Positions 5,749 to 44,281 of a stretch of 44,281 nt of DNA are shown piece by piece. The translations under genes and the position numbers were made by a program. The notes under the pieces were generated by a model, which saw only the letters and a list, made by a program, of their open reading frames with translations, searched no databases and was not told the origin of the DNA. Source of the stretch: Escherichia phage UAE_MI-01; sequence record MW862804; one strand, given 5' to 3'. Every line of letters starts with the position of its first letter. The first letter of the stretch is position 1.

Positions 5749-5903
5749 GCTATCCCCCTGGGATTGTGGCAGAGCAGGCCACCCGCTCGACTTCACGCTT
5801 CTAATATTATCAGCGATAAAAATAATCGCAAAATTCGCTTGCGTTGCGGGAATTGGTTGCGCTATATTGGTTGCACACCAACAGAGATATGAAGGAAAAC
5901 AAG

Positions 5904-6257: not shown

Positions 6258-7042
6258 ATGAGACTGACGAAAGACATTAAAAATCAGATCCTGGCTAACA
6301 TCCTGCGCGACCACGAAATAGCGACCGAAGCCAAACAAATCATGATGGACTCGCGCGATCTGGCTTATGCCATTACGCTGGACTGTATGCCATTACGCTG
6401 GACTGTATGCCAGAAGGCATTCGCACGTTCGCAGCGCTCCGCGAGCATATCAAGGCAATTCGCGACGACCAGTCGCAGATGTACGGCGTCAGCGTATACA
6501 CCAACAAGGCGACGTATAGTTATAACTCCGACCGCCCGAAAGGTATCGGCAGCGTTTACAACGCCACTTTCGAAATCAACGCAGGCGGAAATGTTCGCAC
6601 CTTGTCATTGAGTGGAGACGGTCGCCAATACCGCGTGCATCGCGGGTACTGGGAAGAGAAATATATGAATAAGCTCGCGCCCGATCTCGGCGATATCGTT
6701 CCGGGGTTCGAGACAGTTATGCTGGCTTCAGTGTGCGAAGTGGACGAGGACGGGAAAGCGCTGCCGATATATCTCCCACGCGGTCGCGTAGACTACCCGG
6801 CGGACCATGACTTCTGTAAGCGCCTGGACCGCAACGACAAGGCCCGTAGCGAGTTGCGCGCGAAGTATGATGCGTTCAGACTCACCGTTACCGGTGTACT
6901 GGACCTGCACAATACTGACAAGAAGCTGATTAAAGCATGGCCTGAAGTTGAGCAATTCATCCCATACCCGGACAAGCCAAAATCCACGGCGGTGGCGCTG
7001 GATGTGAAAACACTCAACGAGATTTGCGGCATTCCGCGCTAA
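6258..7042 (+). pseudogene. Hypothetical moron gene split by a 20-bp tandem duplication (frames rejoin if one copy is removed)
   Basis: ORF 6258..6611 and ORF 6407..7042 are in different frames; the 20-mer TATGCCATTACGCTGGACTG occurs twice in tandem (6366..6405); deleting one copy restores one continuous ORF of about 255 codons. Confidence 0.6.
6366..6410 (+). repeat. Perfect 20-bp tandem duplication (2.25 copies) inside a coding region
   Basis: Direct reading. Confidence 0.9.
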
Positions 7043-16137: not shown

Positions 16138-16443
16138 TTATTTCGCAAGCTGGGCGAATAGTTCGCGCTGGGCTTTAATCCGGGCGACGTTTGTCACTGC
16201 TGTCTCACCGATCCCGAAGCGATACGCCAGGCGCTCGCGGGCAAAAGCCATCGCATATTCGCAGATTGCCACGCGCAGCGGTTCTAGTTCGTCCAGGCTG
16301 GCGAACATATCGTCGAACGCGTGCATGATTCCCTGCTGGGCCAGGATGACAACCTGGCGAGCGTCGTCTGCGTTGCCGTCTGTGTGCTTCGCTTCATACA
16401 GCTTCGCCACCGCCATTGTGTAATTCCAGATTAAAGCTCTCAT
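16138..16443 (-). CDS. Hypothetical protein (first gene of the minus-strand operon)
   Basis: ATG 16443 with AAGAGGA RBS; TTGGTTGC motifs upstream. Confidence 0.45.
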   Translation of the reverse strand: MRALIWNYTMAVAKLYEAKHTDGNADDARQVVILAQQGIMHAFDDMFASLDELEPLRVAICEYAMAFARERLAYRFGIGETAVTNVARIKAQRELFAQLAK

Positions 16444-16659
16444 CGTTCAGTCCTCTTGTTGGTGTGCAACCAAAATAGCAGGGTGCCAGGGTGAATGCAA
16501 CCAATATTAATCACGCGTATGAAAAAGTTGATCGCTATCTGCTGTGACTGCAAACTGCATTTCTCACCCTCCATTCTGCAACTCGCATTGGTTGCCTAGT
16601 TCATCGACGACCGCAATCCGCATCATGCTGCCGTGCGTTATGCAATCCTGGATTTTATG

Positions 16660-16850
16660 CAGTCTCAGACGAGGGGGGTGACAGACCCCCCGTCTAGTCT
16701 GAAAGACTGGGGTTTGTCCCGCTTGTCCCGCCCCCCCCCAGGCCGCGTCATCCGTGGGTGGGACGGGGTGCTGTCCCGCTTTGTCCCGCCCCTGGTCTGT
16801 CCCGCTTTTTGTCCCGCTTAGTTTATGCAGTTTTATTGCATAACTATGCA
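16660..16850. repeat. Noncoding module copy B: hairpin, mini-hairpin, GTCCCGC heptamer array (6-7 copies), C9 homopolymer, palindrome TTATGCA-gttttat-TGCATAA at 16823..16843
   Basis: Direct reading; about 85-90% identical to the junction copy over the conserved core. Confidence 0.85.
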
Positions 16851-16902
16851 CTATATTCACACTACACGGCAACCAATGCGACCGCCTAAAAGCCCATAAA
16901 AT

Positions 16903-16983
16903 GGCAACCAATGCGCGCAAAATTTAATCATTTACCGATATGGGAATTCCCATAACGGCAACCAATGCGCGCAAAATTTAATC
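16903..16983. repeat. Two 27-bp direct repeats GGCAACCAATGCGCGCAAAATTTAATC (16903..16929, 16957..16983) flanking a perfect 16-bp palindrome TATGGGAATTCCCATA (16939..16954); third partial copy at 16868..16882
   Basis: Direct reading; lies at and just beyond the 3' end of the primase gene. Confidence 0.8.
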
Positions 16984-19242
16984 TTTTAAATCGTCATCGG
17001 TCGCTGAAAGCGTGATAGGGATATCCGATTTGATGACCAAATTAGACGACCCATAGATGGCCCCGGTGTGCGGATCGGTATAGAAACCTATCACTCCGCG
17101 CTCCACCATATCGTCGATTGCCTTCGTCGAAGTGCCACCTTTTGCGAGTCCCGCCTGGCGGACGATTGCCGATTTACTGAATCCGGTATGGTCCGGGTTA
17201 TCTTCCATCAGTTTTTCCAGTGCCGCATAAAGCACTTTCTCTTTTTCATTGCGCGGTCCGGCGGTGTTCTCTTCCTTAACTGCGGCCTTGCCTGCTGCCT
17301 TCGCCTGTTCGATGGCGAACGGTGCCAGGGCAACCGGTACAAGATACAGCGTCTCATCGCGCGGGGTGGATGCAATCGGCTTGACGTCCCAACCGGCAAC
17401 CACATCTCCGAAGTCTGGCCCGGTGCTGGTGGACTGGTGTGCCTCGAACGCTTCTGACTTGCGGAGATCCACCTTAACTTTGCACTTGAGCAGGACGAAG
17501 CCGCGCGGCGCTTGCTTGATGCCGTTACGTGACTTTTCGTGATACAGGTTCAATTGTCCGGGCTGGTTGTCGTCCGGCTGTTCCAGGAAGAAAGCGGAAT
17601 CGACAGCACCATGCAGCGCGCCGGACCCGCGTGGGGTTCTGCTGCCGTTTGCACCTTTCGCCGGGTGGTGAATGACGCCCGCACTGCCACCTGTGTTTTC
17701 CGCGATGGCCTTCAGAGCTTTGACCACTTCGCCCATATCGCTGGCGTTGTTCTCGTCGAACGGTTTAGCATCGGCGGACCGCAACGCAACCGTCTGGTTG
17801 AGTGAGTCGAACGCCACCAGGCCAACCGGCTCGCCGTTAGCGGTGCGGTTGATAAAGCTGATAACTTCACGCAAGCCAGATTTGCTGGTGATATCCCAGC
17901 CGCGGGATTGCAGATCGATAATGTGCAGCTTGTCCAGGTCGTGCTCGTATTTAATCTGCAATGCTTCTTTACGCTGGTTGGAGGCTTCACCACCTTCCGC
18001 GTCGAAATAGAAGCAATGAGACTGGACGACCTTCGCACCGCCGAACGGGATCCCTGCGGCAACCGCGCCCATTTGGCCCAGCACATAGAAAGACTTACCG
18101 ATATTCGACTCACCCGCCATGTACCAGGTCGATTTAAAGTTAATCAACCCCTCGATAATCGGGTCGTGCTTACTGAACAGCGCGACCGGCTCGTTATCCA
18201 GATCCGCATCGGTGCACACGCCGTATTCTTCGCCGTCGCCAACCGCATCAACAATATGTTCGTATAAGGATTCGACTTCCTCGTCGTCCAGCCCCGGAAG
18301 GATGGCGGCGATTTGCTTGCGCGACATGTTGTGTGGCTCGACGTTCAGGTGGTCCGGGATCCCGATAAGACGCAGCGCCAGGTGCTGGTGTCTGTTCAGT
18401 TCCGAGCAACACTCGTTGCCGGTGTGCATACACTTGAAACGGATCTCGCCATCCTTGACCATAATGGCGGTGGACCCTTCGCCGCTGTGCAGATGTTCGT
18501 TCGGGCACGGCACTTCATAACCGCGACCGGAAGATAACTCCTCGAATCCTGCCTGGAAGCACCAGTCCAGAATGCCGTCTGCCACTGCGTCGTCGCCCTG
18601 GGTCAGTTCGCGGCGGACTTCCTCTTTCTCAACTCCCAGCTTGTCCGCCAGGCGGAGCAGACGACGGACGCGGGCGCGCTTGCCATAGTGGCATTTAATA
18701 ACAGACTGCTGGTGTGGCAGGTACATCAGGCGGTTTGTGTCTTTCGTGCAGTCGTCGAAGTCCACATCTGACAGGCCCAGTTGGTGTAATAGCGCATACT
18801 GGACACGGCCCAGGTCTTCAGCCGGTACAGGCTTGTCAGTGAGTACCAGGAATCGAGCGCAACGCGTGCCGCCTTTCAGTGGGTGACGGTCGCCGGTTGT
18901 GGTGTGGAAGACGTGCTCCAGCCCCGCGTCAGTGAACGCCTTACGGCAACGGCGTAAAGTGCGGGTGTCGGTGCGGTCAATATCGAAGAACAGGATCGAG
19001 CGGTCCACCGCACTGGTCTTACGACGCAATCCGTCACTGGTATACGCCACGATGCCGTCGGCCTTACGCTTGCGGCGCGCATACTCGGCTTTATCTTCTG
19101 TCTTGTTGATATGCACCGAGGAGATTTCTTTCGCATCTTTGATAAATTCGAAAAATTCATCGGTGGTCATCTGGAAGTTTTCCGCCCTGGCTTTTTCGCC
19201 TTTTTTAGCGGGTCTTGTTACAGCGAATTTAATTAAGCTCAT
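16978..19242 (-). CDS. Bifunctional primase-polymerase / P-loop (RecA/DnaB-like) replicative NTPase
   Basis: 754 aa; N-terminal FFDIDR-type primase-polymerase motif, Cys/His zinc-binding cluster, Walker A GESNIGKS in C-terminal half. Confidence 0.7.
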   Translation of the reverse strand: MSLIKFAVTRPAKKGEKARAENFQMTTDEFFEFIKDAKEISSVHINKTEDKAEYARRKRKADGIVAYTSDGLRRKTSAVDRSILFFDIDRTDTRTLRRCRKAFTDAGLEHVFHTTTGDRHPLKGGTRCARFLVLTDKPVPAEDLGRVQYALLHQLGLSDVDFDDCTKDTNRLMYLPHQQSVIKCHYGKRARVRRLLRLADKLGVEKEEVRRELTQGDDAVADGILDWCFQAGFEELSSGRGYEVPCPNEHLHSGEGSTAIMVKDGEIRFKCMHTGNECCSELNRHQHLALRLIGIPDHLNVEPHNMSRKQIAAILPGLDDEEVESLYEHIVDAVGDGEEYGVCTDADLDNEPVALFSKHDPIIEGLINFKSTWYMAGESNIGKSFYVLGQMGAVAAGIPFGGAKVVQSHCFYFDAEGGEASNQRKEALQIKYEHDLDKLHIIDLQSRGWDITSKSGLREVISFINRTANGEPVGLVAFDSLNQTVALRSADAKPFDENNASDMGEVVKALKAIAENTGGSAGVIHHPAKGANGSRTPRGSGALHGAVDSAFFLEQPDDNQPGQLNLYHEKSRNGIKQAPRGFVLLKCKVKVDLRKSEAFEAHQSTSTGPDFGDVVAGWDVKPIASTPRDETLYLVPVALAPFAIEQAKAAGKAAVKEENTAGPRNEKEKVLYAALEKLMEDNPDHTGFSKSAIVRQAGLAKGGTSTKAIDDMVERGVIGFYTDPHTGAIYGSSNLVIKSDIPITLSATDDDLKD

Positions 19243-19252
19243 TGCCGTGGCC

Positions 19253-19582
19253 TTACTTAGAAGTTTTATTATTGCGTACCCAGGAGCGCACTGTGCTCTG
19301 ATTAATCCCAGTCAACTCGGCAATCATCGCCCATGATTTGCCCTCGGCGCGCAAACGGATAACCTGCTTTTTGTATTCTTCCATTTCTTCATTGTGCTTC
19401 TGCAGCTTGCTTGCTGCCGTGCCGTTGAGCAATTCCAGCCTGGCGCGTAATTCTTTTTCTACACTGCGCAGACGTTCAATCTCAAATAGCACCGCCCCCA
19501 CGGCATCGGTATACGCCCATGACCGGCTTGTCTCACTGCAAACAGTCTTCGTTAACATTTCGATTGCGTCGTTGATATTCAT
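19253..19582 (-). CDS. HTH DNA-binding regulator (putative)
   Basis: 109 aa; coiled-coil middle, C-terminal HTH-like segment (KSWAMIAELTGINQSTVRSWVRN); palindrome GTTGGT-taatga-ACCAAC 14 nt upstream of its start. Confidence 0.5.
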   Translation of the reverse strand: MNINDAIEMLTKTVCSETSRSWAYTDAVGAVLFEIERLRSVEKELRARLELLNGTAASKLQKHNEEMEEYKKQVIRLRAEGKSWAMIAELTGINQSTVRSWVRNNKTSK

Positions 19583-19759
19583 TGCTCTGCCCTCAGTTGG
19601 TTAATGACCAACGAAACTACACCTAAAACCGAAAGGTGTCAAATCCTTTGGATATTGAAACGGGCGCGCACGCGTGTAATAATAATTCCCGTCTCATTGT
19701 CTCTTATTGGTTAGCGCCGTCGCATTTTGCCTCGGCGCTTTTTTTTTTGAAATTAGTTG

Positions 19760-19788
19760 TTGACTCCCTTCTGCAACCAATCTAATAT
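19760..19788 (+). promoter_or_regulatory. Sigma70-like early promoter (TTGACT-17 bp-TAATAT) with CAACCAAT motif in the spacer and a T10 tract upstream
   Basis: Direct reading of the -35/-10 hexamers and spacing. Confidence 0.55.
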
Positions 19789-19984: not shown

Positions 19985-20527
19985 ATGTTTGAACAAATCG
20001 TAAACCTGATCACTCGCGGCGTAGTAGCACTGGAAATCATCGCTAAACATTATGAAACCGTTGGCGCTGCCGTAGACCCAAAAGCAAACGGCACTGCTAA
20101 GAAAGGCAAGGCCAAGCCAGATACTGAAGTCGAAGACGACGACGATCAGGACGAAGTCGAAGATACGCCTAAAACGAAAAAAGGCGCGGCAAAAGAAACC
20201 AAGTCTAAAGGTAAGGCCAAAAAAGAAGTCGTAGAAGATGACGACGACGATGACGCCGATGACGTGAAGCCAGCGAAGGGTAAAAAAGCTCCGGCGAAAG
20301 GCAAAGGCAAGAAAGATGCCGATCCGCTGGCAGAGATGCGCGACGAGATCAAACAGTATGCCGCTATTATCGCTGGTGGTGACGACGACGATGCCAACGA
20401 CGAATTCGACGACCTGCTGGAAGCGTTCGAGATCAAATCAATCGCCAAGCTGGAAGATGACGACGTCGAAGACTTCCACAAAGACCTGAAAGAAATCGTC
20501 GAAACCTATTTCGAATTGGAAGATTAA
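19985..20527 (+). CDS. Highly charged early protein with alternating Lys-rich and Asp/Glu-rich blocks
   Basis: ATG 19985 with GGAGAT RBS; first gene of the plus-strand operon; followed by terminator. Confidence 0.55.
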   Translation: MFEQIVNLITRGVVALEIIAKHYETVGAAVDPKANGTAKKGKAKPDTEVEDDDDQDEVEDTPKTKKGAAKETKSKGKAKKEVVEDDDDDDADDVKPAKGKKAPAKGKGKKDADPLAEMRDEIKQYAAIIAGGDDDDANDEFDDLLEAFEIKSIAKLEDDDVEDFHKDLKEIVETYFELED

Positions 20528-22445: not shown

Positions 22446-22680
22446 AGTATTTGCAATCTTATTGATGTTTTTGCTCGGCGCGCTGGGCTTTATCCTGCAT
22501 TGCGTGCAAGGCGTGTTAATGGTGGCGTGGATGATTCGCCATCCGACCCGCTGGCTGGATGACGGCTATAGCGAAGTTGCCGTCGATTGGGTGGAAAAGA
22601 ACATCGACCGACCGCCGCTAAGCTGGATCGAGAACGCCACCAACTACGTTACCAGAAATCTTTTTAGTGAAAATGCTTGA
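22438..22680 (+). CDS. Small membrane protein
   Basis: 80 aa; two hydrophobic segments; start overlaps upstream stop. Confidence 0.4.
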   Translation: MNKVFAILLMFLLGALGFILHCVQGVLMVAWMIRHPTRWLDDGYSEVAVDWVEKNIDRPPLSWIENATNYVTRNLFSENA

Positions 22681-22770
22681 CCGCTTAGGCGCAACCAAGT
22701 AGATTAGCAACCAAGCCGAACGGGGTGGCTTCCAATAACCCCGATACATGTGAAAATGAGGAATTGGAAA

Positions 22771-29268: not shown

Positions 29269-29349
29269 ATTGGTTGCATAACCGTATTGGTTGCATTATA
29301 TTGAGGGTGTCCGGTTTGGACGCCCTTTTTAATACCCGGAGACAGTGAT

Positions 29350-30734: not shown

Positions 30735-31201
30735 AACTACTGATTTGTGACCTGGATGGCGTTATTAACGGTTCAAGCGATGCGCGTGCCGACCTGGTGC
30801 CGGGGATAAAAACGAAATCCACCTTCTGGGCGAAGTGGCACAAAGCGCATATACGCGAAGATCTGAACATGGATATGCTGCCGCTGTTGCGCATGTATAA
30901 AGCGCAAGGCTTCGAGATCGCGTATCTGACAAACCGGCAGCGAGAATGTTGGGACACCACCGCCGAACAACTGGAAGTATTCCCGACAGGCCGGTTGTTT
31001 ATGCGCCACATGCTGGACGATACCCCGCCGCCAGAGTTTAAGGCGTGCGCCGTGTTCAAAATGGTCTGCTATGCGGACGTGTCGGAACTGGTCATCATTG
31101 AAGATTGCGAGAAGAACATCGCGGCAATTCGTCGGGCGTGCGGAGATTTGGTCCCGAAAATTTATGCGATAAACGTTGCAAAATTCACTTGCAACCAATA
31201 G
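30731..31201 (+). CDS. HAD-superfamily hydrolase (nucleotidase/phosphatase-like)
   Basis: N-terminal LICDLDGVI matches HAD motif I (DxDG). Confidence 0.55.
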   Translation: MKLLICDLDGVINGSSDARADLVPGIKTKSTFWAKWHKAHIREDLNMDMLPLLRMYKAQGFEIAYLTNRQRECWDTTAEQLEVFPTGRLFMRHMLDDTPPPEFKACAVFKMVCYADVSELVIIEDCEKNIAAIRRACGDLVPKIYAINVAKFTCNQ

Positions 31202-31264
31202 GTTGGTTGCACTATAGTAAACGTGTCGGGGGCAATACTGCCCCCTCACTAAAAGGGTAATACT

Positions 31265-34018: not shown

Positions 34019-34098
34019 AGCTGAATCCTCATAAATTGGTTGCAATCCAGGTCGAGCGGTGTAATACTAAAACTCAACCAAATATAGGGGATGATACC

Positions 34099-44177: not shown

Positions 44178-44245
44178 TATGCAGTCCCCCTTTTTATGCA
44201 GTTGCCGTCGGTTATTGTATCAGCGAATTTAAAACAAACCTTATT

Positions 44246-44281
44246 CAGTCTCAGACGAGGGGGGCCATTGACCCCGTCTAG
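44246..44281. repeat. Noncoding module copy A (left part): conserved hairpin CAGTCTCAGACGAGGGGGG-loop-CCCCGTCTAG, continuous with window position 1
   Basis: Matches 16660..16697 (same stem, different loop); window end plus window start reproduces the contiguous internal copy. Confidence 0.85.

Follow-up and report, generated by a model that had tools for sequence, protein, structure and literature searches.

The region described here lies at the 3' end of the gene annotated as replicative helicase-primase (hereafter the primase-helicase gene) of Escherichia phage UAE_MI-01, within a stretch of 44,281 nucleotides (sequence record MW862804) that was analysed in its entirety and is referred to as the window. 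The original prediction for this locus was that two identical 27-bp direct repeats, a third partial copy and a perfect 16-bp palindrome constitute either a replication origin, with the repeats as iterons, or an array of regulator sites. Both 27-bp repeats, the partial copy and the palindrome were found to be as described (Table 1), as was the overlap with the primase-helicase gene, where the right-hand repeat covers the stop codon and the last codon. The count of three copies was incomplete, as a fourth exact copy of the 13-mer GGCAACCAATGCG, in inverted orientation (copy D), had been overlooked. This 13-mer is the local form of a motif here named M, with the core GCAACCAAT (also written GCAACCAA(T)). 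Three M copies are present at the primase stop, one inverted copy lies approximately 270 bp away, and another M pair is positioned on the promoter of the next operon. Together, the M copies bracket a module which, when read along the minus strand from the primase stop, comprises the three M copies, an AT-rich hairpin, six TGTCCCGC octamers, a G/C-rich hairpin, a ACGGCAGC box and the inverted M.

The window represents a whole, circularly permuted Dhillonvirus genome (HK578/SSL-2009a/SO-1 group), since its last 35 bases (44247-44281) and its first bases form one hairpin copy that is split between window end and start, the intact counterpart of which is located at 16658-16700. Published read analyses predict headful packaging for the genus (PMC9022532), and the window lacks the cos sequence ATCTTAAGGG that was described in phage EE09 (PMC10673088). 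A megablast search with positions 16400-19300 matched 157 phage records, nearly all of them Escherichia or Shigella Dhillonvirus, at 92-95% identity. Two comparisons were employed: an alignment of 15 close relatives (IMG/VR; 92-95% identical), and a more distant set of loci from approximately 14 lineages with primase-helicases of 37-89% identity, among them Edwardsiella phage eiAU-183, whose complete genome was used and shares synteny with the window (relatives are identified by L numbers where necessary). Additionally, the annotated relative StarDew was consulted; its annotation is over-extended to 95% coding, which renders counts of overlap with coding sequences (CDSs) uninformative, and these were therefore replaced by the distance to the nearest CDS start. 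The literature searched describes no origin, iterons, operators or promoter architecture for Dhillonvirus, and no origin, iterons or operators for Eiauvirus.

Table 1. Features of the primase-helicase locus and related sites elsewhere in the window (window coordinates).
Feature	Position	Strand	Details
Second octamer cluster	1-275 (copies 18-275)	+	nine TGTCCCGC copies, both orientations
Promoter TTGCGT-18-TATATT	near 5830-5880		M cores 5853-5874; by eye
Promoter of downstream operon	16466-16504	-	-35 TTGCAT 16495-16500, 17-nt spacer, -10 TATTTT 16472-16477; one M core over -35 (16497-16504), one over -10/+1 (16466-16473)
Copy D, exact GGCAACCAATGCG 13-mer, inverted	16584-16596	-	far side of candidate iterons
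Box ACGGCAGC, context ACACGGCAGCA	16627-16634	-	kept in all lineages; copy of genome-wide ACGGCA-type octamer
G/C-rich hairpin GACGAGGGGGG-loop-CCCCCCGTC	16668-16694	.	conserved stem, variable loop, no T-run after, z -4.7
Six TGTCCCGC octamers, candidate initiator iterons	16715-16817	+	start-to-start 9, 48, 10, 16, 12 bp
AT-rich hairpin TTATGCA-N7-TGCATAA	16823-16843	.	adjoins candidate iterons
ACGGCA[AGT]C copies right of candidate iterons	16866-16873, 16955-16962	+
ACGGCA[AGT]C copy left of candidate iterons	16627-16634	-
ACGGCA[AGT]C further copy	44201-44208	-
Copy C, GGCAACCAATGCGA	16868-16881	+	innermost; 13-mer GGCAACCAATGCG at 16868-16880
Copy B, 27-bp repeat GGCAACCAATGCGCGCAAAATTTAATC, identical to copy A	16903-16929	+	adjoins primase stop in relatives without 54-bp segment
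Perfect 16-bp palindrome TATGGGAATTCCCATA	16939-16954	.	part of 54-bp variable segment
Copy A, 27-bp repeat GGCAACCAATGCGCGCAAAATTTAATC	16957-16983	+	spans primase stop (16978-16980) and last codon; in 54-bp variable segment
Primase-helicase gene	16978-19242	-	754 aa; annotated replicative helicase-primase
HTH_23/sigma70-region-4-like protein gene	19253-19582	-	109 aa; first gene of primase operon
M half-site palindrome TTGGTTAATGACCAA (also written TTGGTCATTAACCAA)	19597-19611	.	directly after -10 of leftward early promoter
Rightward early promoter TTGACT-17-TAATAT	19760-19788	+	M core GCAACCAAT in spacer, 19773-19780
Promoter TTGACC-17-TAGATT	22677-22705		M in spacer and at +1 (M cores 22691-22714)
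Promoter TTGCAT-17-TATATT	near 29270-29310		M cores 29270-29294; by eye
Promoter TTGCAA-18-TATAGT	31189-31218		overlaps palindrome GCAACCAATAGGTTGGTTGC (M cores 31191-31210)
M-core copy	34036-34043		listed among copies inside or beside sigma70-type promoters

Comparison with close relatives shows that the eye-catching 27-bp repeats and palindrome are the least conserved part of the locus. The outer repeat, the palindrome and a duplicated primase stop-codon context form a 54-bp segment that is carried by six of the 15 relatives and is missing from the other nine; copy B is deleted in L003 as well, and the local number of M copies varies from one to three among phages that are 92-95% identical. 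In GenBank, 31 records match at least 80% of positions 16925-16992, as opposed to 157 for the wider primase region. Copies A and B extend to a 35-nt pair (94% identity) at a spacing of 54 bp. The length of the palindrome, which can adopt a DNA hairpin of -7.4 kcal/mol (z -3.8), is by itself within chance expectation: approximately 0.68 perfect 16-bp palindromes are expected per 44 kb, and one of at least 16 bp occurred in 131 of 200 simulated genomes. Copies C and D, in contrast, have 10-12-nt cores that are invariant in the relatives. All four exact copies of the 13-mer in the 44 kb fall within 16584-16969.

The 27-bp identity and the palindrome thus appear to stem from a recent 54-bp insertion or duplication that merely adds one M site. 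That the pair and the palindrome arose by recent slippage or duplication and have no function of their own is, in our estimation, somewhat better than an even prospect, as the 54-bp unit behaves as a presence/absence polymorphism duplicating the stop-codon context, and the palindrome has a single mismatch in three of its six carriers. Such a neutral origin, however, accounts for copy A and the palindrome only, since copies C and D do not vary and selection on the M core extends genome-wide. An open reading frame (ORF) of 118 aa on the minus strand at 16564-16920 (gp50, a hypothetical protein, in StarDew) was discarded: it is broken in 13 of the 15 relatives, and very likely spurious because only the window and one relative (L014) have it intact.

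Beyond the locus, M is a genome-wide, promoter-associated motif. In an unbiased scan of 8-mers, CAACCAAT was the most over-represented, with GCAACCAA also ranking at the top together with the TGTCCCGC family, and 19 copies of GCAACCAA are present in the window where 2.0 would be expected. Within 37 robust genes, M occurs twice in the sense and never in the antisense orientation (1.4 and 0.5, respectively, in synonymous-codon shuffles); M is not enriched in genes and its excess is therefore entirely non-coding. The copies outside the locus are mostly paired and situated inside sigma70-type core promoters, at the -35, spacer or +1 position, and 11 of the 13 M sites outside the locus in StarDew are at most 100 nt from a CDS start (P = 5e-5). 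Three of these promoters (19760-19788, 22677-22705 and 31189-31218) were called independently by a promoter scanner, while the other M promoters, including that of the downstream operon, were read by eye, the latter being below the threshold of the promoter scan of 16300-17200. The M site in the spacer of the rightward early promoter is invariant in 13 relatives, including L029 (69% primase identity). Similarly, the half-site palindrome at the leftward early promoter, which drives the HTH (helix-turn-helix) and primase genes, is invariant in Dhillonvirus relatives; L029 retains its outer half-sites and an M core and differs in the centre.

Overlap with core promoter elements at several promoters, combined with enrichment in non-coding DNA, is the pattern of an operator array. 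This sequence evidence shows M to be a short, presumptive protein-recognition motif selected at the DNA level in non-coding DNA, and one that appears to behave like an operator rather than an origin-specific iteron. Three known types of site were considered by eye and rejected, namely a sigma54 promoter (wrong GG-to-GC spacing), a PdhR-type box (half-site spacer of 5 nt instead of 3) and a site for integration host factor (the TTGAT part of the consensus is missing). The M sites of the window are partly syntenic with those of eiAU-183, being found upstream of the gene for a protein resembling single-stranded DNA-binding protein (SSB), upstream of the HNH/helicase block and near the scaffold gene. 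One of the M promoters, at approximately 5830-5880, lies upstream of an Nmad5 gene (6407-7042, plus strand) that belongs to a small plus-strand island in the structural block, and eiAU-183, L029 and L034 carry Nmad5 genes too.

The TGTCCCGC octamer occurs 18 times in the window (2.2 expected), and 15 of these copies fall in two clusters. The first is the array of six within the module, which displays the layout of an iteron origin in that it is clustered, beside an AT-rich hairpin and approximately 160 bp from the primase stop; its CGGGACA sequence is invariant across the 15 close relatives. The AT-rich TTATGCA hairpin is kept down to relatives with 37% primase identity. The second cluster, together with 44241-44281, constitutes a paralogue of approximately 200 bp of positions 16654-16857, including the G/C hairpin and the AT-rich hairpin. 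It lies approximately 16.7 kb from the array at 16715-16817, upstream of the tape-measure gene, is also found in StarDew, and is devoid of the M 13-mer. The 7-nt loop of the TTATGCA hairpin is exactly inverted (ATAAAAC versus GTTTTAT) between the copies at 16823-16843 and 126-146, as well as among close relatives, and this flip-flop suggests that the hairpin, or a cruciform, really forms. The window start cuts through the G/C hairpin of the second cluster, and the GenBank record of eiAU-183 likewise starts inside the equivalent cluster. After the second cluster, an extended -10 promoter-like sequence, TGATACAAT, was noted by eye on the minus strand at approximately 44213-44221.

The product of the primase-helicase gene matched AAA_25 only in a Pfam scan, its primase domain being without a Pfam match, and searches against the PDB with the single sequence and with a profile returned marginal RepA matches only and no P4 alpha. 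An AlphaFold (AF2) model based on a 50-sequence alignment (mean predicted local distance difference test score, pLDDT, of 75) comprises four parts, which from N- to C-terminus are an alpha/beta domain, a Zn-ribbon-like segment with conserved Cys and His, a helicase core and a winged helix. The core superposes on RSF1010 RepA as its best structural match (template modelling score 0.67-0.70). The predicted C-terminal domain (H-H-H-beta-beta, residues ~666-737, window 17032-17247) was also modelled alone (pLDDT 77), and all of its top fold matches are winged-helix DNA binders (MarR family, histone H1 and Rio2). An acidic tail, D-x-D-L-x-D, encoded by the last six codons of the gene (16981-16998, minus strand), is kept from the window to relatives of 37% identity and may serve to dock a partner protein, for example SSB or the polymerase.

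The winged helix is the most variable region of the primase-helicase, and across approximately 14 lineages it varies together with the repeats of the array. In the seven lineages whose small HTH protein is of the HTH_23 type, four iteron types were observed, each paired with a winged-helix type: GCGGGACA with the helix-2 segment FSKSAI..QAG (window, L029 and L038), GTGTGGCA with FSRRAIL (L032 and L036), GTGTGCCA with FSARQIML (L037) and GGTGCCA with FSKAAIMRASG (L039). For L036 and L038, the iterons were predicted from the protein alignment before the DNA was fetched, and both predictions were confirmed. Furthermore, lineages in which an HTH gene of the XRE type replaces the HTH_23 gene have the iterons CTCGCAA, TTCCGCACA, TCCGACAG, GGGATAA, GGGATGA and CGCCCCG, each with its own winged helix. 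M remains constant across lineages in which iterons and winged helix change. This co-variation points to the octamers as probable binding sites of the winged helix of the primase-helicase.

It was proposed originally that the repeats are iterons and the palindrome a core element, which in its full form would have the GGCAACCAATGCG repeats bound by the primase-helicase and the palindrome acting as unwinding or loading site. The repeats do adjoin the initiator gene, an M array is kept at the primase 3' end across lineages, M-type repeats dominate both origin-like clusters in eiAU-183 and the palindrome is able to form a hairpin. Nevertheless, we regard this proposal as improbable. The M core is found in core promoters genome-wide, its local copy number is variable, and the palindrome, of unremarkable length, sits in a dispensable unit that nine of the 15 close relatives lack; these natural variants already suggest that replication proceeds normally without the 54-bp unit. 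Additionally, copies A to C are spaced at 35 and 54 bp, which is not iteron-like, and it is the TGTCCCGC-type repeats, and not M, that change with the winged helix of the primase. Of the two alternatives in the original prediction, the regulator array is therefore favoured for the repeats themselves, although an origin-like module is indeed conserved directly downstream of the primase-helicase gene.

This module is retained well beyond the close relatives. The full layout, consisting of proximal M, TTATGCA hairpin, iterons, G/C hairpin, one or more CGGCARC boxes and an M-bearing promoter, is present in Dhillonvirus relatives, L029, L036, L037, L038 and L033; the sequences of L032 and L039 end before the distal part of the module. 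In distant lineages, M copies lie within or just past the last primase codons and one or two CGGCARC boxes are present. The sigma70 promoter of the next operon has M over its -35 and spacer in the relatives, with two M cores in L029, L036, L037, L038 and L033. The more distant L022, L025 and L027 keep hairpin, iterons, box and promoter, with a clear M-like motif in L027 only. L034 and L035 have a weak hairpin or none at all, and no promoter was recognised in their sequences. M hardly changes in sequence among lineages with as little as 45% primase identity. Parts of the layout are kept in eiAU-183; no other 8-mer in that genome is as over-represented as GCAACCAA (23 copies, 2.2 expected), and a promoter of like design, TTGGTTGCAT-17-TATAGTTGGTTGCA, bears M on the -35 and at +1. 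From these comparisons, an M array at the primase 3' end, which flanks the iterons in relatives down to 37% primase identity, emerges as old and conserved, unlike the particular 27-bp repeats.

The reading that we favour, with about even confidence, is that regulator-binding M sites bracket an iteron origin, that the octamers are sites for the initiator, and that the palindrome unit is a recent addition. The TGTCCCGC block and the AT-rich hairpin would serve as the replication origin, in an arrangement resembling that of P4 ori/crr and pRN1; the winged helix of the primase-helicase would bind the octamers, and the second cluster (18-275) would be either a P4-crr-like element or a second origin. 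As the least certain step, the M array at the primase stop may provide auxiliary operator sites for a repressor-like DNA-binding protein. This array would cooperate with M on the promoter approximately 365 bp downstream, either through a DNA loop or by acting as a roadblock; the downstream promoter would thereby be controlled and the origin protected from transcription that reads through from the primase operon. Such shielding is proposed because a scan of 16300-17200 detected no intrinsic terminator after the primase gene.

Within the Dhillonvirus lineage, the 109-aa protein encoded by the first gene of the primase operon may be the best candidate for the M binder, although this assignment is among the least certain of our proposals. 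Its C-terminal HTH matches HTH_23 and Sigma70_r4_2, and the segment SWAMIAExTGINxSTVRSWVRN is invariant across Dhillonvirus-like lineages while the rest of the protein diverges; the invariant HTH and the presence of M on the promoter of its own operon both fit an autoregulated repressor. The protein is variously annotated as transposase, resolvase or Gam (nuclease inhibitor), and nothing beyond the HTH was supported. In more distant relatives, an unrelated XRE-type HTH gene occupies its position, and no XRE homologue was found in the window. The phrog_3127 protein was rejected as M binder, being of low complexity and highly charged, and a screen of the other conserved early proteins gave VRR-NUC, DUF6378 and Nmad5 matches and no further transcription factor. 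The phrog_3127 gene (19985-20527, plus strand; 180 aa) is the first of the rightward early operon and is conserved in eiAU-183; its product consists of alternating Lys-rich and Asp/Glu-rich blocks, and the ORF is often annotated approximately 75 codons too long, thereby taking in the early promoter.

Several observations weigh against a repressor-bracketed origin. The promoter scan of 16300-17200 detected no convincing promoter over copies A to D. GC and cumulative skew track the direction of transcription only, with a minimum at the divergent early region at approximately 19.6 kb; the GC skew shows nothing at 16.8 kb and is unusable for origin mapping. The fold matches of the winged helix are weak (E 0.01-0.2) and generic, backing the fold class only, and P4 alpha (1KA8) was outside the top 50 matches of this domain. 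Furthermore, eiAU-183, L033 and L035 share M yet carry the unrelated XRE-type HTH, with mutually divergent recognition helices, and no HTH_23 homologue was detected in these three. As M persists alongside unrelated XRE proteins, it may be bound by a conserved factor of phage or host origin, or by a different part of the primase-helicase. Both octamer clusters precede a late operon, and it is possible that they serve late transcription or packaging. Lastly, M fills both clusters of eiAU-183 that are equivalent to the two octamer clusters of the window, and an origin-accessory role therefore fits these sites as well as an operator role does.

This last point leads to the main rival of the favoured reading, in which M sites are accessory elements of the origin: a conserved host factor or a domain of the primase-helicase would bind both flanks, bend or loop the origin and aid helicase loading, with the promoter copies representing a secondary, autoregulatory use. 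The iterons of P1 oriR, which have DnaA boxes at their flanks, offer a parallel. In favour of this role, M lies to either side of the iterons whether the small protein of a lineage is of the HTH_23 or the XRE type, its sequence is nearly constant, it occupies both eiAU-183 clusters, and no DNA-binding replication protein other than the primase-helicase was found in all lineages. However, most M copies reside in core promoters far from either cluster, the second iteron cluster of the window is without M, and no domain or host factor of M specificity was found; we therefore view an accessory role as doubtful, albeit worthy of consideration.

A further signal, the octamer ACGGCA[AGT]C, was noticed in passing; it is strongly over-represented across the window and enriched in relatives with this primase-helicase. 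The window contains 69 copies, and a single copy of ACGGCACC; ACGGCARC alone accounts for 52 copies where 4.8 are expected. In genes, 39 sense and 15 antisense copies were counted (approximately 2.6:1), compared with 7.7 +/- 2.5 and 4.2 +/- 1.8 in synonymous-codon shuffles, and the octamer is present in two reading frames, which places the enrichment at the level of DNA or RNA rather than protein. All related loci show this enrichment, those of 37-46% primase identity and eiAU-183 among them, and T1, whose primase and helicase are separate, does not clearly do so. At the locus, copy C with AC in front reads ACGGCAAC, and members of the octamer family stand on opposite strands to the right and left of the iterons (Table 1). 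The octamer is possibly a primase recognition site or an mRNA signal; this is speculation, and the strand geometry would fit the primase role.

When applied to the locus, the primase role would make ACGGCAAC (16866 and 16955, plus strand) and ACGGCAGC (16627, minus strand) recognition sites of the fused primase, located on the strand of an outward-moving 5'->3' helicase, so that the first primers would be extended as leading strands of the forks moving the opposite way. The ssiA and ssiB signals of RSF1010 provide an analogy. The genic excess of the octamer, its enrichment wherever this enzyme is encoded, the RepA-like helicase core and the recurrence of the opposite-strand geometry round the iterons in L029, L022 and L027 speak for this model. 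It is purely inferential, however: the octamer occurs in copies A and C and is lacking from B and D, its sense-strand bias could equally mean a role at the mRNA level, and the literature searched contains no primase with an 8-nt recognition site. We thus think it unlikely that priming explains these elements.

A more encompassing proposal, slightly less improbable in our view but still an outside chance, combines the three signals, such that the ~400-bp module would be a bidirectional origin composed of separately evolving parts: iterons read by the winged helix, repressor-bound GCAACCAAT sites, and ACGGCA[AGT]C as the recognition site of the fused primase. If this were true, the GCAACCAAT-bound factor would also repress promoters and link replication to the transcription programme; ACGGCA[AGT]C would be selected approximately five-fold over synonymous-codon expectation genome-wide in every phage with this enzyme, and would supply lagging-strand priming sites everywhere, the first primers flanking the iterons. 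Codon choice shaped across a whole genome by an 8-nt primase recognition site would, to our knowledge, be without precedent.

The inverted arrangement of copies C and D raises the question of whether the 14-mers at 16583-16596 and 16868-16881 pair with each other in read-through RNA or unwound DNA and loop out the iterons, as an RNase III site or cruciform. The two arms form a perfect 14-bp inverted repeat and are 271 nt apart. Pairing is nonetheless unlikely because the sequence itself, and not just its complementarity, is kept across lineages, changes at the arm edges are not compensatory, and the proximal and distal sets have the same orientation in L036. As a whole-window scan also returned no Rfam match, we consider this explanation to have next to no likelihood.

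Dhillonviruses are among the most commonly isolated siphophages of E. coli and are used in phage-therapy and host-range collections. The present analysis provides testable cis elements in these phages, namely a candidate origin with lineage-specific iterons, a genome-wide operator-like motif and a strongly selected octamer; a candidate origin with iterons matched to the winged helix is, moreover, of relevance to replicon compatibility and engineering.

The closest parallels in known systems are partial. In P4, the copies of an octamer iteron are grouped into two clusters that lie apart from each other, one of which is near the replication gene. The situation in the window would be similar, as the same octamer is present in two cis regions (TGTCCCGC at 16715-16817 and 18-275), with the second cluster kept in StarDew and two homologous clusters present in eiAU-183, and as the primase, hexameric helicase and C-terminal winged helix (the latter predicted by AF2 models) reside on one polypeptide. 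Conversely, the clusters are 16.7 kb apart in a virulent phage of 44 kb, and a second motif class, M, flanks the iterons and marks promoters. The helicase resembles RSF1010 RepA (superfamily 4/RecA fold) rather than a superfamily 3 helicase; the RepA-like helicase and the lack of a sequence or fold match to alpha place the primase-helicase outside the P4 family. The layout of primase, helicase and winged helix is common to P4 alpha and ORF904 (PMC2777425). In pRN1, the origin is downstream of orf904 and the repressor gene orf56 is co-transcribed upstream (PMC4234260); the locus described here likewise combines a small DNA-binding protein, co-transcribed with a multifunctional replication protein, with a putative cis element beyond the replication gene, that of pRN1 being just past the stop (PMC4234260, PMC2777425). 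The pRN1 origin differs in being a 100-nt stem-loop without iterons that is served by a superfamily 3 helicase, while the candidate origin of the window consists of octamers and short hairpins.

Similarly, the oriV of RSF1010 contains iterons, G/C-rich and A/T-rich segments and ssiA/ssiB, and is served by the RepA helicase, the RepB' primase and RepC. A RepA-like helicase, an iteron block beside G/C-rich and A/T-rich segments and candidate priming motifs on opposite strands would be shared with this IncQ system; unlike in RSF1010, primase, helicase and the predicted origin binder are fused. No hairpin signals of the IncQ ssi type (~40 nt) were found beside the repeats, where only short octamers on opposite strands occur, and the module is for this reason not considered an IncQ oriV. 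In its promoter context, M resembles the operators of lambda OL/OR, lac O1-O3 and deo, being located in the -35, spacer or +1 region of several promoters, often as pairs or half-site palindromes, with extra copies a few hundred bp away. It departs from these systems in that the extra copies enclose a putative origin and that M is common to lineages with unrelated HTH proteins.

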